The notes beneath the pieces were generated by a model. The model was not told the DNA's origin. It worked only from the letters and a program-made list of their open reading frames with translations, and made no database searches. From Candidatus Multivoradales bacterium (GTDB lineage Bacteria; Acidobacteriota; Thermoanaerobaculia; Multivoradales; J023), in the NCBI GenBank assembly GCA_965248925.1, contig CBDFLE010000005.1, positions 2,048,001-2,112,000 on the forward strand: 64,000 bases of DNA, written 5' to 3'. The position numbers and the translations under genes were made by a program. This document shows, one piece after another, positions 1,507-44,092 of the stretch. Every line of letters begins with the position of its first letter. Within the stretch, counting starts at the first letter, position 1.

Positions 1507-2598
1507 ATGCGTCGAATCTCTGCCAAGAAACAGGGCTCAGAGCCCGCGCGCAAGCCGACCTCCGCGACCCGCCATACCCCCTTCGACCGATCAGCCGCCT
1601 CGGCACCGGACCTGCTCCTGCGCCGGGCCGAGTACCTGGGCCACCACGTCCGGCCAAATCGCCAGAGTCAGGATTCACGGCTACAACGTCAGCCGGTGTA
1701 CCACAAGCCACTTGCCGGTATCGCCAGCGACAAGACCGAGGAACAAGGCCTCAAGCAAGCCAAGCTGATCGACAAGCAAGTCGACAAGGCTTATGAAGAG
1801 TTCATGGGAGGCAACTACAAAGGCGCCAGCGATGCCCAGATTGAACTCTACTTGCTGCGCAAGCATCAGTTAGACAACGGCGAGAAAACGATGCACCCAT
1901 CGACCGCTGCCGGCTATGTGATCGAAGGCAAAGTCAACTCAGTGATCGAATCCTGGAAGGGTGTCAGCACCCAGGTCACCGACGCCCTGCCAGGCACCCG
2001 CCCGGATGTCAGCATCGACCTCGGCGACGGTGTTTTCGCCTTAGTCGACATCACCGCCTCGAACAGCGCCGGACACATCCTAAACAAGAAAGGAAATTGG
2101 CTGAACCATAAGAATATCCCAGTGGTCATCGAGTCGGTCTATCCGAGCATCGATTTCAGCACGATGAAGAAGATCAAACTGTCCGCTGAGCAACTCGAGC
2201 AAGTACATAAGCGAATCGCCGAAGACAAAGAAGCCAAGGCCCTCGCTCAAGCCGAACTCCAGGCGCAGATGGAGCAAGCCCACACTGAGCGCCAGAACGT
2301 GCTGATCAACAAGCTGAGCGAAGCGATGATGGCCTTCAGAGTCCGCAAGCGAGGCAACCGGACCGAGCTTGAGATCAAGAAGAAGGGTCGCACTCAGGCA
2401 CTGTGGAACGCCTGTGGTCTGGTGGTCGAGATCAATACCCGCGCGGGTTTCACCGACCTCGGCTCACCCAAGGAATGGGACGCCCAACGGATCCCTTACG
2501 CAGACTGGATCGATACCGTCGAAGATCGCACCGAATTGCGGAAGAAGGCCGCGCTCCTGCTCGGCGGTCTCAACCGGACACTTCGCCAGCTGAATTGA
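1507..2598 (+). CDS. Putative eCIS cargo/effector with PD-(D/E)xK-like nuclease motif
   Basis: 363 aa ORF; disordered N-terminus with DLLLRRAEYLGHHV...LQR leader shared with two other ORFs in the window; central GYVIE...TRPDVSI...LVDITAS resembles a restriction-endonuclease fold. Confidence 0.55.
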   Translation: MRRISAKKQGSEPARKPTSATRHTPFDRSAASAPDLLLRRAEYLGHHVRPNRQSQDSRLQRQPVYHKPLAGIASDKTEEQGLKQAKLIDKQVDKAYEEFMGGNYKGASDAQIELYLLRKHQLDNGEKTMHPSTAAGYVIEGKVNSVIESWKGVSTQVTDALPGTRPDVSIDLGDGVFALVDITASNSAGHILNKKGNWLNHKNIPVVIESVYPSIDFSTMKKIKLSAEQLEQVHKRIAEDKEAKALAQAELQAQMEQAHTERQNVLINKLSEAMMAFRVRKRGNRTELEIKKKGRTQALWNACGLVVEINTRAGFTDLGSPKEWDAQRIPYADWIDTVEDRTELRKKAALLLGGLNRTLRQLN

Positions 2599-3797: not shown

Positions 3798-6700
3798 ATG
3801 CCCATCCGAGTCTCGTACCCTGGCGTCTACGTTCAAGAGATTCCCGGCGGCCAGCCGGTCACCGCCGGTGTTTCCACGGCCAGCACTGCTTTTATCGACT
3901 TCTTTTCCCGCGGACCGATGGAAAAGGCCAAGCAGGTGTTCAGCATGGCCGAGGTCAATCGCAGCTTCGGCGGTTTACATTTACGCAGTGAGGCCAGCTA
4001 CGGCCTCAAGCAGTACTTCTTGAACGGCGGCCAGGAGGCCTGGATCGTCCGCGCCACCGACGGCACCGCGATCAAAGCGCTGCTCGACGTCAAGGTCAAC
4101 ACTCCCGGCTTGGATGTCCGCTTTCAATGGGCAACCGATTCCGCCGACGCCGCCGACAAGGCACAGCAGGCCGCGAAGCGCGCCGCCGAAAAGGCCAAAG
4201 ATGCGCTGACCGCGCTGGCGGCCGCGGTGAACGATCAGCAACGCACCCAGGGTGGCGGCGACTTGCGCAGCGCCACCACCGAGTCCGCCGACGAAACCTA
4301 CAAGGCGACCGCCGCCACCCGAGCCGCCGCCGAGCAGGCCAAGGCATCCAGTGACGAGCTGGCCATCGCCATCGCCGCCTTGGCGGCCGCCTCCGGGCCG
4401 GTCGCCGATCGCACCGCCCAAGCCGCCGAGCACACCGCCCAGGCCGCCGCCGCCTCGAGCGATGCCGCCAAGACCACTCCGGCGGTGATCGCCGCCGCCC
4501 AGAAAGCGGTCGAGGTGGCCAAGAAGGGGCTCAGTGCGGGCCAGTCCTCGCGCACCGCGCAAACTGCCGCCAAAACCCTCGCCGACCTGCAAACCGCGGT
4601 CGACGCCGCCAAGGCGGCGATCGCCACGGTTACCGCCGAGGAGACCGCGGTTACCGACGCTGGTGACAACTTGGTCGCTAGCAAGGGTGCCGCTTACAAC
4701 GCCGCGGTCGCCGCCGAGGACGCGGTGGCGCAAGCCGATACCGCTGCTCGCGAAGCATTGAGCGTCGCCAAGACGGTCTACGAGCACCACAAAGCCGCCG
4801 GCAACGACGACGACGCCAAAGCCGCCAAGGAGGATGTCGACGCCGCTAGCGACAGCGAACAAATCACAACCCTGGCGACCGCCGCCAACGCCGCCGCCGA
4901 GGCTCAGCTTGACTCGCAAACGATCATGGAGACGGCCGACGCCACCGCTGCTGCGACCAAGGCCAAAGGCGCCGCGGACCAGGCCAAGTCAGTGATCGAC
5001 AAGGTCGAGACAATCGCCGCCAAGGGTCTCACGTCAGTGCTCACCATGGCCTCCGAGGCCGCCGACACCAGTGCCACGCTGGCGGTGAAAGAGGGTGATG
5101 GCACCGTCGGCGAGGCGGTCAAGGCGGCCAATAAGGAGATCCTCAAGGCCAATGCCGCCGCCAAGGCGGCATTGGTGGCCTGCAAGCTGACCTCCGACGA
5201 CGCTAAGGTCGCGGCCAGCTGCGTCGGCTCGGCAAAGGTCAACCTCGACGCTCGCGGCGCCATCGCCGGAGCCGAGAAAGCCGCCGCCGACACCATCGAG
5301 ACGTTGAAGGCCGCCAAAGTCATCACGGCGCAGCTCAACAAGGCCCTGATCCTTGCGCTCGATTCGACCAAGCCGGCCGTCGAGTCCGCCGCCGCCGCGA
5401 CGGCCGCGGGTGGCAATGCCGACCTCTCGATCAACGAAAAGATAAAGGCCGCGGCGGCTGCCGCCCAAGCGGCGCTCAACGCCGCCAACAACTGCGTCGC
5501 CGCTGCCGAAGCTGTCGAAAAAGCAGCCACCGAAGTGTCGAGAGTCGCTCTTCAGGCGACTACCGCTGCCGACCTGGCGGCACGGGCAGCCAAGGTTGCG
5601 GTCGCCGCCAACAAAGAGGCCAGTCAACCGCCGACCCTGCGCATCGCCGCCGCCAACGAGGGCATCTGGGGCGACAACATCCAGGTCGAGATCAAGGTCG
5701 ACGGGGCTAACTTCTCGCTGGTGGTCACCGAATACCTCACCGAGCGCGGCGTCACCCGCCAGGTGGGACAGGAGAATTACAGCAGCCTCAACCTGGAGAA
5801 GGGCGAGAACACCTACGCCATCCCGGTGGTCAACGACCAGAGCGATCTAGTGTCGCTCGACTACATTGGCCTGATGGTCTCGGGGGCCTACCCCGCCGAC
5901 ATCGATGGCGAGTTCCTCAACGGCGGCGATGATGGCGGCCACGCCGACGCCACCCAGCTGACCGGTGCCGACGGCGCCATGTCGGCGCTTGAGGATATCC
6001 AGCCCTATATCTTCAATCTGCTCAGCCTGCCTTCCGTAGCCAACATGCCGGCCGCCGAGGCCAGCGTGGCCACCGCCAATGCCCAGGTCTACTGCGGCGA
6101 GAAGCGAGCCTTTTACATTGTCGACATTCCGGAAATCGTCGACGATACCGACAAGATGCTCGAATGGGTCAACAGCTACGGCAACGCCCAGGCCTATTAC
6201 ATGGCGGTGTATTACCCTCGGTTGGTGATTCCCGATCCGCTGCAGGACTTCCGAGAACGCAATGTCGGTCCCAGTGGCACTTTGGCCGGCATCTACTCCC
6301 GCACCGACACCGCTCGCGGGGTGTGGAAAGCGCCAGCTGGAATCAACGCCGTGCTGCAAGGTGCCCAGGTGTCGTCCAAGGTCACCGACATTCAGAACGG
6401 GCTGCTCAATCCACGCGGCGTCAATGTGCTGCGGACCTTCCCCATCTACGGCAACATCAGCTGGGGAGCCCGCACACTGGCTGGTGCCGACGCACTGTCG
6501 AGCGAGTGGAAGTACATCAGTGTTCGCCGCTTGGTCAACTACATCGAGGAGAGCCTCTTCCAGAGCCTCAAATGGGCCGTCTTCGAGCCCAACAACGATG
6601 TGCTGTGGGCCAAGATCCGCTCGCAGATCGCCACTTTCCTCTCCAGCTTGTTCTCACAGGGTGCGTTCCAGGGCGCCGGCGAGGGCAGCGCCTACTTCGT

Positions 6701-6836
6701 GACCTGCGACGGCACCACGACCACGCCGGTCGACATCGAACTCGGCATGGTCAATATCGATGTCGGCGTTGCACCGGTCAAGCCGGCGGAATTCGTCGTC
6801 CTCAGAATGCAACAGATCGCTCAGGCCGCCGCCTGA
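3798..6836 (+). CDS. eCIS contractile tail sheath protein with ~500 aa Ala-rich insertion
   Basis: N-terminal YPGVYVQEIPGG...YFLNGGQEAWIVR; C-terminal RTDTARGVWKAPAG, WGARTL, WKYISVRRL, WAVFEPN, APVKPAEFVVLR are sheath signatures. Confidence 0.96.
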   Translation: MPIRVSYPGVYVQEIPGGQPVTAGVSTASTAFIDFFSRGPMEKAKQVFSMAEVNRSFGGLHLRSEASYGLKQYFLNGGQEAWIVRATDGTAIKALLDVKVNTPGLDVRFQWATDSADAADKAQQAAKRAAEKAKDALTALAAAVNDQQRTQGGGDLRSATTESADETYKATAATRAAAEQAKASSDELAIAIAALAAASGPVADRTAQAAEHTAQAAAASSDAAKTTPAVIAAAQKAVEVAKKGLSAGQSSRTAQTAAKTLADLQTAVDAAKAAIATVTAEETAVTDAGDNLVASKGAAYNAAVAAEDAVAQADTAAREALSVAKTVYEHHKAAGNDDDAKAAKEDVDAASDSEQITTLATAANAAAEAQLDSQTIMETADATAAATKAKGAADQAKSVIDKVETIAAKGLTSVLTMASEAADTSATLAVKEGDGTVGEAVKAANKEILKANAAAKAALVACKLTSDDAKVAASCVGSAKVNLDARGAIAGAEKAAADTIETLKAAKVITAQLNKALILALDSTKPAVESAAAATAAGGNADLSINEKIKAAAAAAQAALNAANNCVAAAEAVEKAATEVSRVALQATTAADLAARAAKVAVAANKEASQPPTLRIAAANEGIWGDNIQVEIKVDGANFSLVVTEYLTERGVTRQVGQENYSSLNLEKGENTYAIPVVNDQSDLVSLDYIGLMVSGAYPADIDGEFLNGGDDGGHADATQLTGADGAMSALEDIQPYIFNLLSLPSVANMPAAEASVATANAQVYCGEKRAFYIVDIPEIVDDTDKMLEWVNSYGNAQAYYMAVYYPRLVIPDPLQDFRERNVGPSGTLAGIYSRTDTARGVWKAPAGINAVLQGAQVSSKVTDIQNGLLNPRGVNVLRTFPIYGNISWGARTLAGADALSSEWKYISVRRLVNYIEESLFQSLKWAVFEPNNDVLWAKIRSQIATFLSSLFSQGAFQGAGEGSAYFVTCDGTTTTPVDIELGMVNIDVGVAPVKPAEFVVLRMQQIAQAAA

Positions 6837-6870
6837 TCTCGGATCCAAGAAAACCAAGGAGGTTTTATCA

Positions 6871-7455
6871 ATGGGTACTCCCAAGAACCTACGTTCGACC
6901 ATCATGGATCCGCTGCTGAACTTCAAGTTCATTGTCAGCTGGGGCGAGGCCGGTTCGGCGAAATACGAAGTAGTCGCCGGGGTGAGCAAGTTCGGCCCGC
7001 TGTCGCGCAACACGGAAGTTGCCGAATACCGCGAAGGTGCCGATCCCTTTGTCACTCGTAAGATCCCAGGGCAGGTGAAATACGACGACATCAACCTCGA
7101 GCGCGGCATTATTCTCGATGTCGCCTTCGAGCAGTGGGCCAATAAGGTTTGGTACTACGAGCAGTCCGACGCCCTGGCCTCCAACCAGGTGTCGCTGATC
7201 GACTTCCGCAAGGACGTGCAGATTCAGCTCTGCAACCAGGCCGGCCAGATCGTCAACCAATACCTGATCTTCAATTGTTGGCCCACCAAATACCAGGCGG
7301 CGCCCGATCTCGACGCTTCGGCTGGCAACACGGTGGCGCTCGAAACCTTGACCTTGGCCAACGAAGGCTGGGTCCGTGACGACACCTACAAGGCCGTCAA
7401 GTATCCGACCTACGCCTTGCCGGATTCGCCAACAGGTGGCTTGCCACCCTCCTGA
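6871..7455 (+). CDS. eCIS tail tube protein (gp19/Afp1-like)
   Basis: DPLLNFKFIV, EYREG, RKIPGQVKYDDINLERG, CWPTKY...LDA...VALETLTLANEG; start reassigned to ATG 6871 behind AAGGAGG. Confidence 0.95.
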   Translation: MGTPKNLRSTIMDPLLNFKFIVSWGEAGSAKYEVVAGVSKFGPLSRNTEVAEYREGADPFVTRKIPGQVKYDDINLERGIILDVAFEQWANKVWYYEQSDALASNQVSLIDFRKDVQIQLCNQAGQIVNQYLIFNCWPTKYQAAPDLDASAGNTVALETLTLANEGWVRDDTYKAVKYPTYALPDSPTGGLPPS

Positions 7456-7460
7456 TCCAT

Positions 7461-8207
7461 ATGCACGCCCTCACCGCCCAAGAAGCGCTGGCGGCTTGGG
7501 AAAGAGGCCAGCGACTCGACCCTCTGGGCCGATCGCTGGCCTTTCTTTCGGTCGCCCTGCCGGCCGTCGAGCGCCTACGCATTCTGCAGCTGCCGGTAGG
7601 GCAGCGCGACGCTCTGCTACTGCGCTTGCGTTTCCGCACTTTTGGGCCGGGTCTGCGAGGTTCGGTCAACTGTCCATCCTGCAACGTACCGCTGGAGTTC
7701 GCAGTCGATCTGCGTAGCTACGACGCGATCGGCCACCTACAACGAGAGATCGGCGCCCGCGAGCTGGTCGTCGAGCCCTACCGAGTGGTCTTCCGCCTAC
7801 CCAACAGTGAGGACTTTTCCGCCATCGCCGAGGGCTGCGTCGACGCCGAGAGTGGCCGCGAAGTCCTGCTCGACCGCTGCCTGCTGCACGCCTTCGAAGG
7901 CAATCAGGAAATCGCGCCGCAGCAGCTCCCCGCCGAAGTTTTGGCTCAGGTCGCCGCTGAAATGGAGAGTCTCGATCCTCTCGCCGAGCTACCGTTGGCG
8001 ATCGATTGCGGCCGTTGCGATCACTCCTCCCTGGTGCTCTTCGACATCGGCCAGTTTCTTTGGCATGACATAGCCGCCTCCGCCAGAAGCCTGCTCGAAG
8101 AAGTCCACGCCTTGGCCACCGCCTACGGCTGGGGCGAAGAGCAGATTCTCAACCTGAGCGGGGCGCGCCGCCGCTTTTACATCGAAAAGATCCCAGCCGG
8201 GAGCTGA
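7461..8207 (+). CDS. eCIS baseplate hub-assembly/chaperone-like protein (T4 gp26-like, two CxxC)
   Basis: LPVGQRDALLLRLR, CPSC, FRLPNSED, CGRC, C-terminal EVHALATAYGWGEEQILNLSGARRRFY; usual position after the tube gene. Confidence 0.8.
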   Translation: MHALTAQEALAAWERGQRLDPLGRSLAFLSVALPAVERLRILQLPVGQRDALLLRLRFRTFGPGLRGSVNCPSCNVPLEFAVDLRSYDAIGHLQREIGARELVVEPYRVVFRLPNSEDFSAIAEGCVDAESGREVLLDRCLLHAFEGNQEIAPQQLPAEVLAQVAAEMESLDPLAELPLAIDCGRCDHSSLVLFDIGQFLWHDIAASARSLLEEVHALATAYGWGEEQILNLSGARRRFYIEKIPAGS

Positions 8208-8212
8208 AAGCA

Positions 8213-14625
<6,413 letters not shown>

Positions 14626-14629
<4 letters not shown>

Positions 14630-15921
14630 GCGACTATCGAGCCATCGCGGCTACCACCGTCACGCTGCAAAACATGCTTACCGAAGCGATTCGCGAGGTG
14701 GTGCCCGGAGCCGCTGTCGCCACCGGCACACCGCCCGCGAAGACCGGTCATGAACTCACCGAGGGGCTGATCAATATCTTCCTCTACAAGGTCGAACCCA
14801 ACCCGACTTGGCGCAACGAGGAATTGCCGGTACGCGCCGCCGACGGCAGCTGGATCCGCCGGCCGCAACTGGCGATCAACTTGTTCTTCTTGTTGTCGTT
14901 CTATGGCGATGACGTGAAGCAGATCCCTTCCCTGTTACTCGGTACAACTCTGGCGACCCTGCATGCAGAACCCTATCCCCACCGGCGGCATTTCCCCCAA
15001 GCACGCCCAGACGGTCCAGGGCACAGCAGCTTTATCGACGGCAGTCCCAACCTGGCGGGCTCTGGGCTGCTCAACCAACGCCACGGCCTGTCGTTTTCCT
15101 TGCTGTCCTCCGAGCAAGACGAAGTCATCCAGACCTGGACGCAGCTGCTGCACCAGTCCTACACCCTGTCGGTAGCCTATGTCGCTCGGGTGGTGTTGAT
15201 CGAGCCGGCGGTGGTGCCAGCCGCGGCGTTGCCGGCGCGCCGCACCGATGTTCGCTTTAGCAGCACGCGACAACCGCGCCTAGAGAGCCTGGCTCCAGCC
15301 ATCTTGCCTTTCGCCCCCGCCGCCGAACTGCGGCTGCGCGGCCAAGGACTGACCGCCGAGCATGTGCGAGTCGCTTTCGGCGGCATCGAAGTCGAACCCC
15401 TGATGCGCTCAGCGACCGAGCTGCGAGTGCTGCTCCCAGACCAGCTGCAAGCCGGCGCGCAACCGGTCAACGTGGTCCACGGCGAACAACGGGACGATGG
15501 CCCGCTGCGTTGGAGCATCGCCTCCAATCAACTTTCGGTGGTCATCCAACCAGTGCTGCTGGGGGCCGCTTGGCGAGCCCAGACTTCCGACCCGGCCCCC
15601 ACCACCACCACGGGCTCCACCAGGACTAGCGGCACCATCGAAGTGCAGATGGCGCCGCCAGCCACCGCCCCGACTGATGTCGAGCTACTGCTCAACGCCA
15701 CCCCACCCTCCAACCGCGCGGCAGCACCGCCGGGCTATGTTTTCGCAGCCACGGTCGACCCGTCCCGCCCCGATCGAGTCGACTTCGTGGTGACCGCACC
15801 CCCGGGCCGCTATCTGGCGCGTATCAGGGTGCTCGGCGCAGACAGCCCTTTGACCGTCGACAAAGATCCGTCAAGTCCGAATTACCAACGCTTTGTGGGC
15901 CCCATCGTGGAAATCGGCTGA
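14626..15921 (+). CDS. DUF4255 / Pvc16-Afp16-like cap (sheath terminator) protein with IPT-like C-terminal domains
   Basis: MSDYRAIAATTVTLQNML, INIFLYKVEPNPTWRN, YTLSVAYVARVVLIE; located before the ATPase. Confidence 0.88.
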
Positions 15922-17900
15922 TGGCGGACCTATTCACCAGCATCTTGACCGAGGTTCGCTCGGCGCTTCAGCGACACGCCGAGAACGCGCCCTCGGAGAG
16001 CACCGAAACAGCTGCCGCAGACACCGCCGCAAACACAACTCCGGCACCAGCCACAAGCGCCGACGACAGTCAAGTTTCGAGGTTGCGGCAGCTCAGCCAG
16101 CTGTTCGAACTATCTGACTTCGAAGTGCGTGTGCTGGTGCTCTGTGCCGGCCTCGAGCTGGACTCCTCTTTCGCACCACTCTGCGCCAAGGCACAGGTCG
16201 ACCCTAAACGCGCCTACCCTACTTTCGGCCTCGCCATGGCGACTCTGCCGGGAGCGCAATGGCAAGCTCTGCTGCCACAAGCACCGCTGCGCGCCTGGCA
16301 GCTGTTGCGACCCGCCACCGGCGAACCCCTGACCGCCGCCGAGCTGCGTATCGACGAACAGATCCTGCACTACCTTATGGGTTTCGACAGCCAGCCCAAG
16401 GCCCTGGCGCCGCTGATCGAACCGGTGCTAGAGGATCAGCTCGACCTGGTGGCATCGCACCGGCGGCAGGCTGATTTGATCATCTCCACCTGGCGCCAGA
16501 CCCGGGGCAGTAGCGAGTTTCCGGTGGTCGAGCTGCGGGGCGACAACCACGCCGCCAAACGGCCGATTGCCGCCTTGGCCTGCCAACAACTCGACCTGCG
16601 CCTGCAGGCCATCGCCGCCGAATCTCTACCCACTCAGCCCGAGGAACTTGAATCCCTGCTCCGCCTGTGGCACCGCGAAGCACTGCTCGATGGCGCAGCT
16701 CTGCTGGTCGAAGCCGACCAGCTACGACCCGACGATGCCCGCGAGCCGGTGCTGCGCAGCTTTCTCGACCGCAGCCGCACCGCCATGCTGGTTACCCGCC
16801 GCGGTCGCCTGGCCCTCCGCCACCGAGCACTACTCAGCCTTCCAGTCGAGAAGCCCCAACGGCAGGAACAACGCAGCCTTTGGCAGCGCCTGGGAGAAGC
16901 CCGTGGGATCTCACTCGACCCTCAGCAGCGCGTCGCCTTGGCCGATCAATTTCACCTCGGTGCGAAGGAGATTCGCAGCATCTGGGTCGAGGCCCTCGGC
17001 CGGCTACCGAGCGACGGCGAGACTATCGATCAACAGCAGCTGGTGGCAGCGCTGTGGCAAACATGCCGCCAACAGGCACGGCCGGCCCTGGAGGATCTCG
17101 CCGAACATGTAGAACCCAAGGCTACTTGGGACGAGCTGGTGCTGCCCGAGCCGCAGCTCCAGACCCTGCGCCAGATCTCCATTCACTTGCGCCAACGAAG
17201 CACCGTGCACGACAGTTGGGGCTTCTCCAGCAAGAGTTCGCGTGGCCTCGGAATTCATGCTCTGTTCAGCGGCTCCAGCGGCACCGGCAAAACGATGGCC
17301 GCCGAAGTGCTGGCTGGCGACCTCGGCCTCGATCTGTTCCGCATCGACCTGTCGTCGGTGATCAGCAAATACATTGGCGAAACCGAAAAGAACCTCGAGC
17401 GGGTCTTCACCGCCGCCGAAGCCGGCGGTAGCATCTTGCTGTTCGACGAAGCCGACGCCCTCTTCGGTCGCCGCGGCGAGGTCAGCGACAGCCACGACCG
17501 CTATGCCAACATCGAAGTCAGCTACCTGCTGCAACGCATCGAGACCTATCGCGGACTGGCCATCTTGACCACCAACTTGCGCGGCTCCCTGGACAGCGCT
17601 TTTCAGCGGCGGCTCGAATTCATCGTCGAATTCCCCTTTCCGACCCCAGTCGAGCGGGCGGCTATCTGGGCTAGGGTATTCCCCGCCAAAACGCCGACAG
17701 ACAACCTGCATCTTGATCGCCTGGCGCGACTCAACTTGAGCGGAGGCCATATCCGAAATATTGCCCTGAATGGCGCTTTTCTGGCCGCCAAAGACTGCGC
17801 TCCTGTTAACATGAAGCATCTGCTGATTGCCACCCGTCGGGAACTGGCCAAATTGAACCGGCCGCTGCCTGAGACCGAAGTCCAGGATTGGTTGACATGA
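15921..17900 (+). CDS. eCIS AAA+ ATPase (Afp15/Pvc15-like)
   Basis: Walker A GSSGTGKT, SKYIGETEKNL, Walker B LLFDEADALFG, DRYANIEVSYLLQR. Confidence 0.96.
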   Translation: MADLFTSILTEVRSALQRHAENAPSESTETAAADTAANTTPAPATSADDSQVSRLRQLSQLFELSDFEVRVLVLCAGLELDSSFAPLCAKAQVDPKRAYPTFGLAMATLPGAQWQALLPQAPLRAWQLLRPATGEPLTAAELRIDEQILHYLMGFDSQPKALAPLIEPVLEDQLDLVASHRRQADLIISTWRQTRGSSEFPVVELRGDNHAAKRPIAALACQQLDLRLQAIAAESLPTQPEELESLLRLWHREALLDGAALLVEADQLRPDDAREPVLRSFLDRSRTAMLVTRRGRLALRHRALLSLPVEKPQRQEQRSLWQRLGEARGISLDPQQRVALADQFHLGAKEIRSIWVEALGRLPSDGETIDQQQLVAALWQTCRQQARPALEDLAEHVEPKATWDELVLPEPQLQTLRQISIHLRQRSTVHDSWGFSSKSSRGLGIHALFSGSSGTGKTMAAEVLAGDLGLDLFRIDLSSVISKYIGETEKNLERVFTAAEAGGSILLFDEADALFGRRGEVSDSHDRYANIEVSYLLQRIETYRGLAILTTNLRGSLDSAFQRRLEFIVEFPFPTPVERAAIWARVFPAKTPTDNLHLDRLARLNLSGGHIRNIALNGAFLAAKDCAPVNMKHLLIATRRELAKLNRPLPETEVQDWLT

Positions 17901-18223
17901 AAATCGATCTAGAAATCGACCACTTGCGCCTTCCGACCGCCGCCGGCTTGCGCGGCGAGGATCTGGCCACCGCTATCGAGAGCGAGCTCGACCGGCTGAG
18001 CGAAATCTACGGTTTGCCCGCTTATGGTAGCAATGCAGGCGGGGTCGATATTGACCTGGCGTCGTTCCCGATCAACCCTCACGCTTCCATCGACCAACTC
18101 GGCGCCTCGATCGCCCGCTCGCTGATGCAGGGTTTGCATCAGAAGAGCGGCCGGGTTCCGCGAGAACTCGACAGAGGCCCTGACGCGCCCCACGATACTT
18201 CCTCCAACGAGGTAGTGCGATGA
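17897..18223 (+). CDS. Small eCIS-associated hypothetical protein
   Basis: MKIDLEIDHLRL...AIESELDRL...LGASIARSL; ATGA overlaps on both sides. Confidence 0.7.
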   Translation: MKIDLEIDHLRLPTAAGLRGEDLATAIESELDRLSEIYGLPAYGSNAGGVDIDLASFPINPHASIDQLGASIARSLMQGLHQKSGRVPRELDRGPDAPHDTSSNEVVR

Positions 18224-18918
18224 GCGCCAGCGGCACCTCCACTTATCCGCCGGTGTTGCCGAAGGTCGCCCAGCGGCCGACTCCCTACAATCTGCAAAAA
18301 CGTTTCAAAGGAGCGCTGGTTTCGGTCACCAAGACCGGTAAGAAAACCACTGTACCTTTCCAATACAACCCGGCCAAACTCGACCGCACTTTGACCCCGC
18401 GAATGTACGACGGCCCCGAGGGCCAAGCCCAATTCGTGGGCGGCGCCAGTCAATCGATCTCCGTCACCGTCGAGCTGCAAGCGGTTGACACTATGGTGGC
18501 GCAGTCAAAGAAGAACAAGCTAGCCAACGCGGCCAAGGGGCTCTACGCCCACCTTGCTGCCCTCGAACTACTGCTCTACCCGGCGACCAAGGATATCGAA
18601 ACCTATCGCAACGACTTGGACAACAACGTCAAGGGCGCGGTACCGCCGCAAGCGCGACCGACACTGTTTGTTTGGGGTCCCCAGCGAGTCCTGCCGGTGA
18701 ACCTGAAGTCGATGGTGGTCAAGGAAATCCTCTTTAACATCGCGCTAAGCCCGGTGCGCGCCGAGGTCACTCTAACCATGAATGTCGAGAACGTGATCGA
18801 CACCGAGGGCGATTCCTACCAATTGCTGTTGGCCCATCTCAAGAACATGGAACAAATGCGCCAAACCCAGGGGGCCGAGGTCTTCGGTAGCAACAAGATC
18901 ACCGGAGCCCAGTACTGA
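18220..18918 (+). CDS. CIS tube-initiator-like protein (Afp7 N-terminal-like)
   Basis: VPFQYNPAKLDRTL, LAALELLLYP, PTLFVWGPQRVLPV, PVRAEVTLTM. Confidence 0.85.
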   Translation: MSASGTSTYPPVLPKVAQRPTPYNLQKRFKGALVSVTKTGKKTTVPFQYNPAKLDRTLTPRMYDGPEGQAQFVGGASQSISVTVELQAVDTMVAQSKKNKLANAAKGLYAHLAALELLLYPATKDIETYRNDLDNNVKGAVPPQARPTLFVWGPQRVLPVNLKSMVVKEILFNIALSPVRAEVTLTMNVENVIDTEGDSYQLLLAHLKNMEQMRQTQGAEVFGSNKITGAQY

Positions 18919-18936
18919 GTCTAAGAGCCAATAAAG

Positions 18937-19212
18937 ATGATCAAGAAATCTAGTCGCTACCACGGCTTCGACCACCATCGGCATCTAACTCCCGGTGGTC
19001 ATGAGATCCTCTATCTCGAACGTCGCTTCATTCCGCGATTGCAGACCTCCGGCAAGACCACCAACGCTCAAAGCGAACGCCTCGACCTGATCGCCGATAG
19101 AACCTTGGGCAATCCGCAGCTCTACTGGCGCCTCTGCGACGCCAACGAGGAGACCAATCCGTTCGTGCTCTCCGAACGATCCGGGCGCACCCTCAAGCTA
19201 CCCAACCTATGA
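18937..19212 (+). CDS. LysM/tail-X-like baseplate protein
   Basis: SSRY...YLERRFIP...ERLDLIADRTLGNPQLYWRLCDAN. Confidence 0.85.
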   Translation: MIKKSSRYHGFDHHRHLTPGGHEILYLERRFIPRLQTSGKTTNAQSERLDLIADRTLGNPQLYWRLCDANEETNPFVLSERSGRTLKLPNL

Positions 19213-19225
19213 GCGGCAACCCTCC

Positions 19226-20416
19226 GTGAAGCTAAACCTCAAGGTCGGTCCCGACTCTCCGCAAGGCGCTTCTGAAGAAATGATGGCGGCGCTCAGCGCG
19301 GTCGAGGTGACCCGCGCCACCGCTGGACCGTCGGGCTTTCAACTCAGCTTCGCCACCAGCCGCTACGATCTCGACGACCCGTCCTCGGTCGAGGAGTGGC
19401 CGCTGCTCAGCGATCAGAACCTGCAACCCTGGAGCCGGGTGCAGCTGGAGGTCGACGATGGCGACTCGAAGATCGTGTTGATGGACGGTTTCATCACCCG
19501 TCAGGAAATCAATCTTGACCACAAGAGCGGCTCCAAGATAGTGGTCACCGGCGAGGATGTCAGCCTGAAGATGGATCTATTCGAGGTCTCCGCCGAGTAT
19601 GAGCAGAAGAAAACCTCCGAGATCGTCACCGCCATCCTCGGCAAGTATAGCTCGGCGGGAATCACCCAGAAGGACGTCCAGGCGCCGCAGAATGAAGTCG
19701 CCCCGACCGGCTACGTACCACAGCAGAACTGCACGGATCGCTTCTACGTCCAGCAGCTTGCCGCTCGCCACGGCTTTGAATTCTACGTCGTGCCCGGCAG
19801 CTCGGCGGGCAGCAACAATGCCTATTGGGGACCGCCGGTGACCGACGGTTCGGCGCAGGCCACCTTGATCGCCAATAAAGGACCGAAAGACACCGTGCTG
19901 TCGATGAGCCTGAGCTGCGACGCTCTGGCGCCGACTTTGGCGTATGGCCAGGTGCTGGATCTGACCAAGAACCCGGCCGAGGCAGGCGACATCGCAATTG
20001 GCAGCGCGACGAAGAAACCCGACCTCTCAAGCGGCGGCGCGATCCCTTCAACCCCCAGTCCAGGCGGCCTGGCGGCGACCCCGACAACCTACAGCCAGAA
20101 CCTCGACAAACTCGCCGTGCGCGGTCGGTTGGTGCACTACCCAGGCTTCCCCTTGGCCGAGGCGACCCAATTTGCCCAGGGCAAGACCAACCGTTCGGTC
20201 ACCGACATGGTGACCATCGAGGGAGAACTCGACAGCGACGTCCTGGGCACAGTGCTCAGCGCGCCAGGAGTGGTCGAAGTCGAGGGTTTGGGGGCGATGT
20301 ACTCCGGCGACTACTACATCAAAGAAGTTACTCATAACTTCCGCTTTGAAATCGAAACCTGGTACTACCGCCAGAAGTTTGTCCTGACCCGCGGCGGTCT
20401 GGGACTAAAAAGTTAG
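19226..20416 (+). CDS. Baseplate hub, gp27/late control D-like (VgrG N-terminal half)
   Basis: SGFQLSF, LMDGFITRQE, VTGEDVSLKMD, QQNCTDRFYVQQLAARHG, GAMYSGDYYIKEVTH. Confidence 0.85.
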   Translation: MKLNLKVGPDSPQGASEEMMAALSAVEVTRATAGPSGFQLSFATSRYDLDDPSSVEEWPLLSDQNLQPWSRVQLEVDDGDSKIVLMDGFITRQEINLDHKSGSKIVVTGEDVSLKMDLFEVSAEYEQKKTSEIVTAILGKYSSAGITQKDVQAPQNEVAPTGYVPQQNCTDRFYVQQLAARHGFEFYVVPGSSAGSNNAYWGPPVTDGSAQATLIANKGPKDTVLSMSLSCDALAPTLAYGQVLDLTKNPAEAGDIAIGSATKKPDLSSGGAIPSTPSPGGLAATPTTYSQNLDKLAVRGRLVHYPGFPLAEATQFAQGKTNRSVTDMVTIEGELDSDVLGTVLSAPGVVEVEGLGAMYSGDYYIKEVTHNFRFEIETWYYRQKFVLTRGGLGLKS

Positions 20417-20425
20417 GAATCACCA

Positions 20426-21277
20426 ATGGCCGACAACCACCTGGTCGACGTGCTCAACGATCCGCAGTGGCGCCGCGATGGGCGCTATTTCGGCAAATAC
20501 CGCGGCATCGTGCAGGACAATAAGGACCCCGACAAACTCGGCCGCATCTTGGCGACGGTGCCGGCGATTTCCGCCATGGCGAAAAACTGGGCCCTACCCT
20601 GCTCGCCCTACGCCGGCAAGGATGTCGGCCTATACACCATCCCACCGGTCGGCGCCAAAGTATGGATCGAATTCGAAGGCGGTGACCCGACGTTTCCAAT
20701 TTGGAGTGGCTGCTTCTGGCAAAAAGACGAGCCGCCGACCGAGATCGGCACCAACGCCGACGATCCGTCGCAGGTCAAGATTCTCAAGACTCGAGTGGCC
20801 AAAGTATGGATCGACGACACCGATCAGAAAGGGCAGATGGTAGTGCAGTTCAACGACTCCACCGTCGATCAGCCGATCACCGTCACCATGACCATCGACT
20901 CCACCGGCATCAAGGTTGAATGCGCGGGCGAGAACACCAGCACGGTGATCCAAACCCCCGACGACATCTCCACCGACAGCCAAACCCTGGCCACCACCAC
21001 CGCCAAGGACACCACCCTGACCGTGGAGCAGAATCTCAAAGCGACGGTGAGCCAAGACCTCACCATGCAAGCCGATGGCAAAGCCGATCTGAAGGCCACC
21101 GGTAACTTGACTTTGGAGGGGGACCAGGTGGCCGCCACCGCCCAACAAGCGATCGATCTCAAAGGCATGAACGCCACCTTGGAGGCCACCTCGGCGGTAA
21201 CCGCCAAGGGAGCCACCGCCGAGGTCAATGGCAGTGGCACCACCACCATCAAAGGTGGCATGGTTAATATCAACTAG
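20426..21277 (+). CDS. Spike protein, gp5/gpV OB-fold with beta-helical C-terminus
   Basis: FGKYRGIVQDNKDPDKLGRI, WALPCSPYAG, PPVGAKVWIEFEGGDP..PIWSG; Thr-rich beta repeats ending IKGGMVNIN. Confidence 0.92.
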   Translation: MADNHLVDVLNDPQWRRDGRYFGKYRGIVQDNKDPDKLGRILATVPAISAMAKNWALPCSPYAGKDVGLYTIPPVGAKVWIEFEGGDPTFPIWSGCFWQKDEPPTEIGTNADDPSQVKILKTRVAKVWIDDTDQKGQMVVQFNDSTVDQPITVTMTIDSTGIKVECAGENTSTVIQTPDDISTDSQTLATTTAKDTTLTVEQNLKATVSQDLTMQADGKADLKATGNLTLEGDQVAATAQQAIDLKGMNATLEATSAVTAKGATAEVNGSGTTTIKGGMVNIN

Positions 21278-21285
21278 CGAGGACG

Positions 21286-21678
21286 ATGGTGAAGAGCAGC
21301 GATCTCGAGGTAGGTTTTCCGTTCCAGCTCGACACCCGTGGCCGGGCCTTCGATCCGGGCTACGAGGATCACGTCAAGCAATTGATCGAGCTGGTGTTGT
21401 TCACCACCCCCGGCGAGCGGGTCAACCGGCCAGATTTTGGCTGCGGTCTGCTGGAGCTGGTGTTCTCCCCGGAAACCGAGCAGGAAACCACCGTCACCCG
21501 GCATTTGGTGCAAGCGTCGCTGCAACGCTGGCTCGCCGAAGTGATCTCGGTGCGGGAAGTTGAAATCGATGTTAACGACACTAGACTCAATATCCGCATT
21601 GCATACCAACTGATCGACTTCGAAAATCAAGAGCAAGTAGCGACCTTCGAGTTTCGGGACCTGCCATGGGAGATCTGA
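21286..21678 (+). CDS. gp25/GPW baseplate wedge protein (Afp9-like)
   Basis: GFPF...LFTTPGERVNRPDFGCGL. Confidence 0.94.
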   Translation: MVKSSDLEVGFPFQLDTRGRAFDPGYEDHVKQLIELVLFTTPGERVNRPDFGCGLLELVFSPETEQETTVTRHLVQASLQRWLAEVISVREVEIDVNDTRLNIRIAYQLIDFENQEQVATFEFRDLPWEI

Positions 21679-24266
21679 ACCACAGCGATCCGCGTTTCCG
21701 CGATCAACGGCGCAAAGCGGTGGCGGCGAGTCCAACTCTGGTCGGCCTCGATCACATCGACGTCCGGCACCTCGATACCAGCACCAGCAGTGGCACAGAT
21801 TCCGCCAACGAACTGTGGGATCTGAACTTGCACTTCCTGCCCCCCAGCGAGCAGCGCCAGGACCAGCAGTTCGCGGCTTTACCCAGCCTCGTGGAAGCCG
21901 ACAACATCCGCATCGAGTTCGGCGAGAATGCCGACCCGGCGATCCATGTCCGCCAGATCATGCCGCTGGCAGATCATGTTCTGCGGGTGCGGGTAGCCCG
22001 CAACGTCAACTCGGCGACCCCCCCCGCCCACCTGCCCGCCGACCTCCATCTCGCGGCCGGCCACTTGCCGATCTACCGCTTGCGCCTGGTCGACCTGCCG
22101 ACCGTTGACCGCTTTTTTGATCAGGCCCTATTCGCTTTTCGCGACGGCACCACCGATCTCGGCCTGCCCTCTGAGCTGCCCGAGCAGCGACCCACGTTGC
22201 GGCTGCCCGAGATCGACTACCTGTCGAAGGACTACGAGAGCTTTCGCCAATTGCTGCTCGACCGCCTCAAGCGCGAGGTACCGAGCTGGCACGAGCGCAA
22301 CCCCGCCGATCTCGGGGTCACCCTGGTCGAACTGCTGGCCTACGCCGGCGACTATCTGAGCTACTACCAAGACGCGGTCTCGAGCGAAGCCTACATCGCC
22401 ACCGCCCGGCAGCGCATTTCGATCCGTCGCCACGCCCGACTGGTCGATTACCGCATGCACGAAGGGGTCAATGCCCGCTGTTGGGTGCAGATCAAGATAC
22501 TGCCCACCGAGGCCGAGTCTGGCAGCGCGGCCAGCGCCGCGCCAGAGCCCTTTGAGCTACCCGCCGGCACTGAAGTGCTGACCTCCTGCGGCCAAGTGCC
22601 AGCGATCGTGCCGCGGCTGTCGCGCGAGGAACGCAAGGCTCGGGCCGCTAGGCCGTTGGTATTTCAAACCCTATTCCCCGTCCGCCTGCACCCGCTGCAC
22701 AACCGGATAGAGATCTACACCTGGGGCGCCACCACCTACCGCCTGCGAGCTGGTGACACCCGCGCCGCGCTGGTTGGCCACTTGCCTCATTTGCACCGCG
22801 GCGATGTGCTGATCTTCGAGCGGATGCGTCTCGCTGAGACCCTGGGCGGCAACCTGGACGACCTGCCGACATCGCAGCCGGTGCGGCTGGCCCACCACCC
22901 GCGCCTATCCCTCGATCCAACCCTCGGAGATGACGGCCAGACGGTGCCGGTCACCGAGATCGAGTGGCTGGCCGAGGATGGGTTGGACCATGATCTAGAA
23001 GTCTCAGTACGGATCGGAGGCAAGGTGCGACTGCTGGCCTGCGCGCGGGGCAACAACGTCCTGGTCGACCACGGGGAAAGCCGCTATGAGGTGCTACCGC
23101 AGGTGCCCGCCAACCAACGCTACGGGCCGCGGCTGCGCCAACTCGGCCTCACCCGCCGAGTACCCTATGACTCCGAACGCGCTTCGCGCCTACCGGCCCA
23201 CGGCAACTTGGAACAGGACCCTCGCCAAGCGCTGCCGGCGCTGGAACTCTACGAACTGGCGCCGGTAGAGTTCGAGCGTTACCCCGACGGCGTCCCCTTG
23301 GAGGTTCTGGGCCGCACTCAGCGACAGGTCTGGCGGGTTCGTCATGACTTGCTGGCCAGTGATCGCTTCGGCCAAGACCTGGTCGTCGAGACTGACGATC
23401 GGGGCTACGCCCAGCTCCGCTTTGGTGACGATCGCCAAGGGCTCAGTCCCTATCCCGGCAGCCGCCTGCAGGCCGTCTACCGAGTTGGCTCGGGGCCGGC
23501 TGGCAACGTGGGCGCCTATGCCCTGCGTCATCTGGTGATTGCCAGCAGTGAGTTGGAGCGTTGCGCCGACCTCGGGTTGCGCCTCATCGAGGCTCGCAAC
23601 CAGCTCGCCGGCCATGGTGGGTTGGAGTCCGAGAACAGCGAGCTAGCGCGACACTACGCACCGCAAGCCTTGCACAGCGGTAGGCTCCGCCGCTGTGTGA
23701 CCGAGGATGACTATGCGCGGGTCGCCGAGCGCCATCCCGAAGTCGAGCGGGCGGTCTCCAGACTACATTGGAATGGCACCTCCTGGGTGGCCTTTATCTA
23801 CGTCCAACGCCCGGCATTGCGCACCCTCGACAGCCACTTGAAGCGCCGCCTGCTACGCTTCTTCGCTCCCTTCTTGCTGGCCGACTGTGAGGTCGAGATA
23901 CGCTCTCCGCGATGGGTGCCCCTCGATCTCTGTTTCTTGGTACACCCTCAGGGCTCGGCCCCGCAAGCCAGCATGCGCCAGCGCCTGGGCACTCGCGTCG
24001 AGCAGGGAGAGTTGCCCTTTCTGGCGCCGGACTACTTCACCTTCGGCAAACCGCTCTACCTGAGTGAGTTGATCACTCAGATCATGGAGTTGCCGGAAGT
24101 CAGCAGCGTCGAGGCCAAGGTGTTCAAGCGCTGGGGCGAGAGTTCGCAGGGGGAGCTCGAGCAGGGTGAAATTTCCCTCGCCCCGCTGGAAATCGCCGTG
24201 CTGCGCAACGATCCCTCGGCGCCGCATCTGGGTTCGATACAGGTACGCATTGAGGAGGAAGCATGA
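21666..24266 (+). CDS. Baseplate J-like wedge protein 1
   Basis: IDYLSKDYESFRQLLLDRL, ADLGVTLVELLAY, EAYIATARQRISIRRHARLVDY, LRFGD, RCVTEDDY. Confidence 0.92.
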   Translation: MGDLNHSDPRFRDQRRKAVAASPTLVGLDHIDVRHLDTSTSSGTDSANELWDLNLHFLPPSEQRQDQQFAALPSLVEADNIRIEFGENADPAIHVRQIMPLADHVLRVRVARNVNSATPPAHLPADLHLAAGHLPIYRLRLVDLPTVDRFFDQALFAFRDGTTDLGLPSELPEQRPTLRLPEIDYLSKDYESFRQLLLDRLKREVPSWHERNPADLGVTLVELLAYAGDYLSYYQDAVSSEAYIATARQRISIRRHARLVDYRMHEGVNARCWVQIKILPTEAESGSAASAAPEPFELPAGTEVLTSCGQVPAIVPRLSREERKARAARPLVFQTLFPVRLHPLHNRIEIYTWGATTYRLRAGDTRAALVGHLPHLHRGDVLIFERMRLAETLGGNLDDLPTSQPVRLAHHPRLSLDPTLGDDGQTVPVTEIEWLAEDGLDHDLEVSVRIGGKVRLLACARGNNVLVDHGESRYEVLPQVPANQRYGPRLRQLGLTRRVPYDSERASRLPAHGNLEQDPRQALPALELYELAPVEFERYPDGVPLEVLGRTQRQVWRVRHDLLASDRFGQDLVVETDDRGYAQLRFGDDRQGLSPYPGSRLQAVYRVGSGPAGNVGAYALRHLVIASSELERCADLGLRLIEARNQLAGHGGLESENSELARHYAPQALHSGRLRRCVTEDDYARVAERHPEVERAVSRLHWNGTSWVAFIYVQRPALRTLDSHLKRRLLRFFAPFLLADCEVEIRSPRWVPLDLCFLVHPQGSAPQASMRQRLGTRVEQGELPFLAPDYFTFGKPLYLSELITQIMELPEVSSVEAKVFKRWGESSQGELEQGEISLAPLEIAVLRNDPSAPHLGSIQVRIEEEA

Positions 24267-37588: not shown

Positions 37589-37603
37589 CAGCGACCGCCG
37601 CGA

Positions 37604-38293
37604 TCAAGGCTCGCGTACCTTCGCCCCGTTTTGCTGCACCACATGGGTGAGTTCGTGGGCCAGCAACTGCTGGCCACTGGCAGAACCGGGACGATACTCG
37701 CCCTGGCGAAAGAAGATGTCCTGACCGGTGGTGAAGGCTCGCGCTTCGAGCGAGCGGTTGAGCTGATCGGCCTTGCCATCGGCATGGACCTTGACGCCGC
37801 TGAAGTCGGCGCCGAAGGCTGACTCCATCGAGGAACGCAGGGGAACATCGAGCGCCCGGCCGCCGCTACGCTGGCTGTCGATCGAGGATTCGAGGCTACT
37901 GTCGATGGCTCCGCCTGCTTGCAAGGAGGAGGCACGTTGCAAATACTTCGGCTGGGCGGTGGCGGCCGGGGCGTCGCTAATCTCCGCCTCTTCGACCGCC
38001 GGCGCAGCCAGGCTGGTCATCACTTGCTGCGCCACCTGATCGGCTTCGCGCTCGTAGGCGTCGGCGGCCGGGCCAAGGGTTAGCTTGGGCTGGATGGTGC
38101 CCCTGTCGACCCGCAGCCGGTGGCCGAGCACCTTGGCGCGGGCCAACTGCAGATCGATGTCCGCCGCCGTCCGCTCCGCCAGCGGCCGCGGTGCCAGCGG
38201 CCGCGGTGCCACCCGAGTCGGGCCGGACGGAGCCAGCGTGGACTGATCCTTGCTGCCTGTGACTCGATTTTGCCCTAGTCGATCTGTTCGCAT
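37604..38293 (-). CDS. DUF4157 (eCIS core domain) protein
   Basis: IQPKLTLG..DAYEREADQVA, MESAFGADFSGVKVH, ARAFTTGQDIFF, LLAHELTHVVQQ (HExxH); start reassigned to ATG 38293 with GAGGA RBS. Confidence 0.93.
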   Translation of the reverse strand: MRTDRLGQNRVTGSKDQSTLAPSGPTRVAPRPLAPRPLAERTAADIDLQLARAKVLGHRLRVDRGTIQPKLTLGPAADAYEREADQVAQQVMTSLAAPAVEEAEISDAPAATAQPKYLQRASSLQAGGAIDSSLESSIDSQRSGGRALDVPLRSSMESAFGADFSGVKVHADGKADQLNRSLEARAFTTGQDIFFRQGEYRPGSASGQQLLAHELTHVVQQNGAKVREP

Positions 38294-38405
38294 GTGAATC
38301 CTCGGAGCCATCTTACCGCATCTTTGGGAGCCTACCGGGCCGCTCGCCAACCGGCGCCTGATATCCTGAGCGCGGCGCCCCCACCACCGACCGCAGGAGA
38401 CAGCG

Positions 38406-38792
38406 ATGGGTAGTCCAGCAGCCCGCCTGGGCGATATGGTTTTGCAGGATGCTCCGCATTGCCATGCGCCGATCCACCCCCCGGCCCTGGTTCCCACCGC
38501 GGTGCCGCATCCGGCGTTACCACTAGCGATCATCAAGGGCGCGCCCACGGTCATGATCGGTGGCCAACCAGCCGCCCGCGTGACCGATCAAACCGCCCCC
38601 TGCGTGCTGCCCAGCTGCGTGCCCAACGGGCCGGGAATGATCGCCAAAGGCTCGGCAACGGTGATGATCGGCGGCCTGCCGGCGGCGCGGATCAACGATA
38701 TGACCGCTCACGCTACTTGTGTCGCGCCCATCCCCAGCCCCACCGGCAAGATTCTGCCCCCCGGCTGTCCGACGGTGATGATCGGCGGCTAG
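38406..38792 (+). CDS. PAAR-repeat spike tip protein
   Basis: Three PAAR motifs (SPAARLGD, QPAARVTD, LPAARIND) with TVMIGG repeats and His/Cys ligands. Confidence 0.95.
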   Translation: MGSPAARLGDMVLQDAPHCHAPIHPPALVPTAVPHPALPLAIIKGAPTVMIGGQPAARVTDQTAPCVLPSCVPNGPGMIAKGSATVMIGGLPAARINDMTAHATCVAPIPSPTGKILPPGCPTVMIGG

Positions 38793-44032: not shown

Positions 44033-44092
44033 CCCCAATACTCCGAATGTCCGGCCCGGACTTGAAGACTTCGCACGAGTTTCAACAAACTC

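Follow-up and report, generated by a model that had tools for sequence, protein, structure and literature searches.

A predicted all-helical, alanine-rich domain makes up half of a contractile injection system sheath in a Multivoradales bacterium

The window analysed here is a stretch of 64,000 nucleotides (64 kb) from a Candidatus Multivoradales bacterium (contig CBDFLE010000005.1, positions 2,048,001 to 2,112,000); coordinates below count from its first letter. On its plus strand it carries an Afp/PVC-like contractile injection system (CIS) cluster, recognised with Pfam (3798..33601). The first gene of the cluster (3798..6836, +) encodes a sheath protein of 1012 residues, assigned to the Afp2/Cis2 type from its open reading frame (ORF) and its Pfam, Foldseek, and phmmer matches. 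Nested within this protein is an alanine-rich, predicted all-helical insert of 511 residues (residues 101-611; 4098..5630, +), which is set apart by its composition, AlphaFold2 (AF2) models, periodicity, and restriction to a clade of related sheaths.

The sheath gene and its insert

The C-terminal sheath domain Phage_sheath_1C (PF17482; residues 902-1006, E = 9.1e-13, 48.6 bits against a cut-off of 26.9) is the sole Pfam match in the 1012-residue protein. The AF2 model of the full-length sheath has a predicted local distance difference test score (pLDDT) of 86.0, with the blocks covering residues 241-600 averaging at least 70 and mostly above 90. For this model Foldseek returned 85 matches to the PDB at E ≤ 0.001, with sheaths at every one of the top ranks listed: the best match is 9ezm_A from Halogeometricum borinquense (E = 3e-21), and further matches include the Streptomyces coelicolor CIS (9gts, 9gtp), PVC, AFP, the Anabaena thylakoid CIS (tCIS), AlgoCIS, and T4 gp18. 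By sequence, the closest PDB protein found with phmmer is S. coelicolor Cis2 (9e-57), aligned over residues 7-119 and 784-1009. A Cis2 alignment with a profile built from 120 relatives (the best 120 of 141 from a word-indexed search; the aligned set of 120 counts the query) also takes in the sheath from residue 612 onward (E = 4.4e-117).

The segments of the protein follow the same order as in Cis2, namely an N-terminal core, a linker, a beta domain 3, and a C-terminal core. The N-terminal core (residues 1-100; 3798..4097, +), with the conserved YPGVY motif and the first core strands and helices, corresponds to about residues 6-88 of Cis2 in the phmmer and profile alignments (4-88 as the span of the profile). 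Its mean identity among 30 long homologues is 0.71, and pLDDT is 89-97 for residues 21-100. The segment that follows the insert, at approximately residues 612-715 (5631..5942, +), is beta-rich, with modelled strands at residues 613-618, 628-635, 638-649, 652-665, 685-690, and 702-706; its aligned part (residues 612-690) matches Cis2 residues of about 126-200 in the profile alignment, and we infer that the segment is the counterpart of Cis2 domain 3. The C-terminal core (residues 716-1012; 5943..6836, +) carries Phage_sheath_1C and is delimited by the Pfam and Cis2 alignments. Across residues 612-1012 mean identity among the same homologues is 0.64. Judged from these alignments, the contraction core and the beta domain 3 are intact. 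It is the one sheath among the 36 ORFs of the window scanned with Pfam, and tblastn with its N- and C-terminal parts detected no second copy in the 64 kb.

The insert begins directly after the motif KALLDVKV (residues 93-100), ends where PTLRIAAANEGIWG begins at residue 612, and constitutes 50.5% of the sheath protein. Alanine contributes 33.1% of its residues, followed in abundance by Thr (8.8%), Lys (7.8%), Asp (7.0%), Val, Leu, Glu (5.7%), and Ser, and the aromatic residues Phe, Trp, and Tyr together make up 1.0%; the sheath outside the insert contains 11.0% alanine and 9.8% aromatic residues. G+C content rises to 0.67-0.71 along the insert. In its DNA, Tandem Repeats Finder reported three small rows of tandem repeats, the longest of 47 nucleotides, and the short repeats form 19 families of 15-33 nucleotides, consisting of GCC-rich codon runs, with 69-89% identity in the non-reference copies. 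A profile comparison among seven helix segments of the insert led us to reject internal duplication of helical hairpins, as the best hhalign probability (20.6%) did not exceed that of the reversed-sequence control (21.8%). Because 29 full-length relatives align across the insert, at 42-65% identity, it is real coding sequence and not a product of chance. A first-pass annotation, made from the letters of the sequence, had described an insertion of about 500 residues at 4125..5627, rich in Ala, Lys, Thr, Glu, and Asp, nearly free of aromatic residues, lacking exact DNA repeats, and amounting to about half of the only sheath protein in the operon; the borders found here lie close to those it proposed, and its account of composition, repeats, proportion, and gene number holds.

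When modelled alone by AF2, the insert reached a pLDDT of 84.9 and a predicted template modelling score (pTM) of 0.74, with 268 of its 511 residues at or above 90. DSSP assigned it as all helix in both models. In the full-length model the helices span residues 106-141, 146-287, 292-333, 337-350, 353-374, 379-428, 437-474, 479-522, 524-539, and 545-608, while the insert-only model contains eleven helices, among them ones of 86, 64, and 50 residues; the longest, at 0.15 nm per residue, would measure about 13 nm. Alanine, hydrophobic, and identity profiles over the 30 long homologues gave Fourier peaks at 3.4-3.75 residues, and many of the invariant positions in the insert are alanines at a spacing of 3, 4, or 7. 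This conserved periodicity and alanine spacing fit tightly packed alanine cores. We predict that the insert is a bundle of long, amphipathic, alanine-packed helices, in line with the long helical bundle per subunit that the first-pass annotation had envisaged; the heptad and helical-bundle assignment comes from DSSP and Fourier periodicity. A complex prediction with two copies of residues 112-611 scored 0.00 and, run without controls, counts neither for nor against association.

The profile alignment also places the insert relative to known sheaths, just before domain 3. In S. coelicolor Cis2 the corresponding site, at about residues 89-125, is a linker of some 35 residues rich in Ala, Gly, and Ser. 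Since a linker occupies the insertion site in Cis2 and domain 3 is kept in the window sheath, the insert would be an added fourth domain and not a replacement of domain 3. Because it interrupts the linker running out to the surface domain 3, it is probably an outward-facing domain on the outer face of the sheath, a position deduced from the alignment.

Relatives, conservation, and possible origin of the insert

At the insertion site, 42 of the 120 aligned sequences have fewer than 40 residues, 10 carry insertions that are not alanine-rich, some of them clearly beta-rich, and 68 carry alanine-rich inserts (at least 28% Ala). The many short forms, like the linker of about 35 residues in Cis2, bear out the earlier statement that this stretch is normally short. 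Inserts of at least 480 residues were found in 35 relatives, and the retention of such lengths, with no internal repeat, suggests purifying selection on a defined architecture. In a FastTree phylogeny of the core, from which the insert columns had been removed, the window sheath falls in a clade of 57 members (support 95), 53 with alanine-rich inserts and the other four with 19-26% alanine; insert length within this clade ranges from 165 to 738 residues. A second clade of 20 includes 15 alanine-rich inserts, 11 of which are 94-127 residues long. This is a quick tree with midpoint rooting, and gain and loss of the insert are therefore indistinguishable in it.

Six loci from reference genomes also encode alanine-rich inserts, of 513-561 residues in L002, L003, L004, and L041 and of 187-188 residues in L040 and L043. 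Three of the six are titled as Thermoanaerobaculia metagenome-assembled genomes (MAGs), as are most of the related genome records as Thermoanaerobaculia in general. Each of the six has a single sheath match followed by tube and T4_baseplate-like genes, with the 5' side partly covered in three. The comparison uses these six loci; BLAST-based lengths of inserts that are not alanine-rich in the genome loci are rough and may include a divergent domain 3.

Other arrangements of sheath genes were seen among the relatives. Two Thermoanaerobaculia loci, L007 (527..4705) and L042 (9935..14399), encode two tandem sheath genes each, the first with an insert of 337 or 417 residues (16-18% Ala) and the second without one, so that in these lineages one of two sheath paralogs is, by its sequence, decorated. 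A Bacteroidota MAG (L031, 5369..19000) contains eight consecutive sheath-like ORFs of approximately 500-540 residues, all lacking inserts.

Outside this group of sheaths no relative of the insert was detected. An exhaustive HMMER search of 1,835,955,588 cluster representatives retrieved six proteins at E ≤ 0.001, all from the same clade, five of them sheaths of the same family and the sixth a sheath fragment. No Pfam family was found for residues 101-611, Foldseek gave no match at E ≤ 0.001 in the PDB or among the predicted viral structures of BFVD, and a search of the ESM Atlas for look-alikes yielded no usable match. Weaker, non-significant Foldseek matches to proteins with long helices, namely P-glycoprotein (3.3e-3), the Umb1 particle (2e-2), and tape measure proteins (6e-3; best in BFVD 6.1e-3), were set aside as generic to helices. 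In the full-text literature, whose coverage excludes subscription-only journals, we found no published account of such an insert, alanine-rich or built as a helical bundle, in the sheath of a CIS. The first-pass annotation had allowed that the insert might prove to be a common sheath domain described before; as far as Pfam, the PDB, BFVD, and this literature are concerned, it is not one.

Conservation within the insert is uneven. Among the 30 long homologues its mean identity is 0.39, compared with 0.71 and 0.64 in the flanking core, and by region it is 0.59 and 0.49 over residues 151-250, 0.54 over residues 551-600, and 0.24-0.44 over residues 251-550; the value of 0.59, for residues 151-200, is the highest within the insert. 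In the alignment the most conserved stretch comprises residues 167-206 (4296..4415, +), with the signature ELAIAIAALAAASGPV at the turn between helix 2 and helix 3. Seven positions are invariant in all 30 (T167, A177, A178, A181, L188, I192, and G200), and 13 more are conserved in at least 90%. The stretch includes the polar residues T167, T174, R175, Q180, S185, and E187 and a Gly-Pro helix break at 200-201. A strict pattern for this motif matched 28 of the 57 clade members and none of the 63 other relatives, including all 15 alanine-rich inserts of the second clade; a looser pattern matched 24 of the 57 (at least two of them at non-homologous positions) and 2 of the 63. Both patterns under-count, since all 30 long forms keep L188, I192, and G200 in the alignment. 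The net charge of the insert is negative in all 30 long-form homologues, ranging from -6 to -33.

The position of the motif differs between forms of different length. In the long forms it lies 89-90 residues past the start of the insert, and in the forms of 187 and of 330-440 residues it lies 95-113 residues before the insert end; this shift points to growth on either side of one shared module. On our reading, the module would be a four-helix base of about 185 residues, with the motif at its helix 2/helix 3 turn, of which one or the other distal loop was extended depending on the lineage. Homology between the length classes is supported mainly by the motif they share and by the tree of the core, because the profile and BLAST links are weak. 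A further step would be that the domain arose in place, an alanine-rich linker of 10-35 residues having grown stepwise at distal loops without capture of a pre-existing domain, by way of a helical hairpin, a four-helix base of about 185 residues, and forms of 330, 440, 510, and up to 740 residues. The confinement of the domain to this sheath clade and the intermediates of many lengths speak for such an origin, which we consider possible if somewhat doubtful.

The surrounding gene cluster

The genes of the cluster match an extracellular contractile injection system (eCIS) set, with cap, AAA+ ATPase, spike, and baseplate genes found together. Pfam matches above cut-off include a Pvc16_N cap protein (4.8e-30), an AAA ATPase (4e-25), a Phage_base_V spike (6.2e-25), and Tail_P2_I; the ATPase, placed by Pfam, is Afp15-like and is encoded at 15921-17900. 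Also present are a tube protein, a T4_baseplate-like protein, a second tube-like protein, and a DUF6519/Kelch protein, and matches below cut-off were obtained for CIS_tube, Phage_GPD, gp6-like, and Baseplate_J. The tube gene (6760..7455, +; Phage_T4_gp19, E = 7e-36) lies directly 3' of the sheath gene, and its longest ORF overlaps the sheath end by 77 nucleotides (6760..6836). In view of this overlap, and because the Pfam match and the homolog alignments begin at about residues 27-54, the tube protein probably starts past the sheath stop codon. The order sheath, tube, T4_baseplate-like gene is kept in nine of ten loci, the exception being L033, an N-terminal fragment.

Between the T4_baseplate-like gene and the Pvc16_N cap gene, at the position expected of a tape measure gene of the Afp14 type, lies an ORF of 2138 residues (8213..14629, +) that has no Pfam match above cut-off. 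Pro, Ser, Thr, Gln, and Arg abound in its product, which contains a poly-Q run, looks mostly disordered, and is conserved in related loci over its N-terminal 30-70 residues alone; in these respects it does not resemble a helical tape measure. The ORF includes near-identical direct repeats, each 300 nucleotides or longer, at 9006/10038 (99%), 11190/13227 (98%), and 12155/12887 (98%), and an Ala-Asn-Glu repeat, GCCAACGAG, present in 21 tandem copies at 12725-12917. Toward the 3' end of the cluster (within 24263..33601, +) are a large Baseplate_J-like protein of 1260 residues, with weak matches to BNR and Sortilin-type repeats, and the product of the last gene, 1149 residues with DUF6519 and Kelch repeats, which is likely a fibre or receptor-binding protein.

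Upstream of the sheath gene, an ORF of 363 residues without a Pfam match (1507..2598, +) has a counterpart of 32% identity at the same position in L002. Just past the cluster, on the minus strand (35591..38554), an eCIS_core protein (PF13699, 316 residues) adjoins a pentapeptide-repeat protein of 665 residues; both are candidate cargo or effector genes. A homolog of eCIS_core is found upstream of the sheath in L033. Farther along the same strand (38802..44038, -), at 5-10 kb from the cluster, are genes for an IcmF-related_N protein (1505 residues, E = 2e-46) and a DotU protein (240 residues), followed by genes for a protein with six TIG domains and a FadL-like outer membrane protein. IcmF and DotU are parts of membrane complexes of the type six secretion system (T6SS) kind, and their proximity raises the possibility of a membrane-anchored rather than a released injection system. 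The closest solved relatives of the sheath belong to a cytoplasmic system, in Streptomyces, and to a system that has been called an archaeal type six secretion system.

Possible role of the insert and comparison with known sheaths

We propose, with a probability of roughly 45%, that the insert is a passive outer shield or spacer coat, docked by its base and situated outside the contraction engine. With only one sheath gene in the window, the insert would be present on all subunits, each displaying one helical domain of about 50 kDa. With six subunits per ring, assumed by analogy with solved CIS sheaths, the insert would bring the sheath to about twice its mass and wrap the tube-sheath core in a thick helical coat, hydrophilic and of net negative charge. 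Both termini of the insert would be located close to the sheath body, as would the helix 2/helix 3 turn with ELAIAIAALAAASGPV, and the other end would point outward. The conserved base would dock, the distal part would act as a steric and electrostatic shield or spacer, and relatives would have lengthened or shortened the domain at its distal loops to give the range of 165 to 738 residues. Such a coat could prevent particles from sticking to each other and to their surroundings. The variable length, the poorly conserved distal part, the negative charge, and the scarcity of aromatic residues favour a coat of this kind over a precise lattice or an adhesive. Cis2 carrying an inserted YPet still gave contractile particles (PMC10066040), which supports the idea that sheaths tolerate surface additions. 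For comparison with a helix of about 13 nm, an outer diameter of 24.6 nm has been reported for the AlgoCIS sheath in its extended state (PMC8894135) and one of 23.3 nm for the contracted Cis2 sheath (PMC10066040).

The same features can be accommodated by other roles. Instead of pointing outward, the domains could lie along the sheath and contact those of neighbouring rings as a second outer layer, stabilising the extended state or setting a barrier to contraction. The dense, partly polar motif (T167, T174, R175, Q180, S185, E187, G200, and P201) does resemble a specific contact surface and was not placed by AF2 in the monomer, as expected for an interface between subunits; by our own estimate a bundle of some 10-13 nm would span about three rings, and a stabilising role has been proposed for the extra domains of phage sheaths (PMC9230969). 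However, a spread of lengths over 165-738 residues within one clade sits poorly with a fixed helical lattice, conservation is lowest in the distal two thirds of the insert, and uniform negative charge disfavours tight packing of neighbours, so we regard such bracing as rather unlikely. The motif could alternatively be a helix-turn platform recognised by another component, for instance the AAA+ ATPase of the cluster, an effector, or a fibre. In the T6SS, a helical domain 3 of the sheath (VipA/VipB, TssB/TssC) is recognised by ClpV after contraction. A conserved polar motif within an otherwise fast-evolving domain and the presence of the Afp15-like ATPase would suit this, but a domain of 500 residues far exceeds what a docking helix needs, and no similarity to the T6SS sheath domain 3 was found either in sequence (phmmer against the PDB) or in structure (Foldseek); we think such docking improbable.

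The first-pass annotation had suggested that the domains could bundle particles into arrays, tether them, or tune contraction; for bundling or tethering they would bind to other particles or to a cell structure, including a membrane. A copy on every subunit would confer high avidity, and the IcmF-related_N and DotU genes 5-10 kb away on the other strand make a membrane-associated mode conceivable, yet the negative charge in 30 of 30 long forms and the nearly aromatic-free surface argue weakly against self-adhesion, the variation in insert length from 165 to 738 residues within the clade weakly disfavours bundling, and Foldseek with the insert matched no array-forming or anchoring homolog in the PDB or BFVD. 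We give this idea little credence, and no more to the view that an alanine-rich linker grew into a low-complexity insert that is tolerated but has no function of its own. That the Cis2 linker is itself rich in Ala, Gly, and Ser, that insert length is so variable, and that sheath surface domains are dispensable elsewhere (PMC9230969) would all be expected of neutral expansion; set against them are the maintenance of about 510 residues at approximately 50% identity in dozens of relatives, a conserved helical periodicity and a confidently predicted fold, the lack of repeats, and the cost of 50% more protein per subunit.

Several observations weigh against the shield or spacer coat itself, or against the shared base on which it is built. 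Both AF2 models have their lowest confidence in the most conserved stretch, at residues 159-199, and consequently the proposed docking of the base is not modelled; judging by its sequence, this stretch might just as well bind a neighbouring subunit or another protein. The orientation of the bundle, radial or flat, is deduced solely from helix lengths and the conservation pattern, shielding is the default reading of an acidic, aromatic-free surface, and the insert could be removed by processing. Homology between short and long inserts appears weak and composition-biased: a hidden Markov model (HMM) of five short inserts (about 187 residues) matched residues 109-291 of the window sheath at E = 7.9e-07 in a set of 35 sequences, with 80 bits of bias, an HMM of eleven inserts of about 120 residues from the second clade gave no match in the same comparison, and composition-corrected BLASTP of the insert against 119 sheath relatives returned 29 proteins, none of them a short-insert form.

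Of all parts of contractile injection systems, the surface domains of the sheath are the least understood, and in the clade of environmental bacteria described here half of the most abundant structural protein appears to be devoted to a helical coat. If the coat shields, spaces, or braces, it would point to a selective pressure not seen in the model systems, such as stability, stickiness, or crowding, and would provide a natural display scaffold of tunable length for the engineering of particles, at a site where very large insertions are tolerated. The graded lengths make the insert a promising case for the origin of large folded domains. Should the birth in place be true, the clade would still show, in living form, the steps by which a large folded domain arises de novo, and the outer diameter and surface chemistry of the machine would be set by an evolvable helical fur.

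Among known systems, S. coelicolor Cis2 (PDB 8bky, 8bl4, 9gtp, 9gts) is likewise a single sheath protein with a surface domain 3. Its domains 1 and 2 form the wall, and domain 3 lies on the sheath surface, is highly flexible, and was unresolved (PMC10066040); in other descriptions, domain 3 varies more than any other part of CIS sheaths (PMC11566945) and is an exposed outer epitope (PMC12998442). Cis2 comprises 534 residues with a linker of about 35, whereas the window sheath has 511 helical residues at that site in addition to domain 3. Alg2 of Algoriphagus machipongonensis (PDB 7adz, 7aek), also the single sheath of an eCIS, has added outer domains, III and IV, that protrude from the wall (PMC8894135); it matches the window sheath through the core only, and its extra domains have no Foldseek match to the insert. 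In phage sheaths, extra domains are nested in a core formed by the N- and C-terminal parts, face away from the tube, and are thought non-essential for contraction; most are immunoglobulin-like beta sandwiches, and those of the Bacillus phages AR9 and PBS1 are mainly alpha-helical (PMC9230969). The extra domains of T4 gp18, AR9, and PBS1 are nested as the insert is.

Domain 3 of the T6SS sheath is also a helical surface domain encoded in a locus with an AAA+ ATPase; the insert is several times larger, and phmmer and Foldseek against the PDB found neither sequence nor fold similarity between the two. Bundles of alanine-packed helices are known as the Alacoil type, and the insert shares with them the dominance of alanine at conserved positions and the recurrence at 3.4-3.75 residues, although no solved bundle was found to match it. 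As a class, extra surface domains of sheaths are already well described. What is new in this insert is its size of half the protein, its all-helical, alanine-packed build without a relative, its site in the linker beside domain 3, and its graded lengths.

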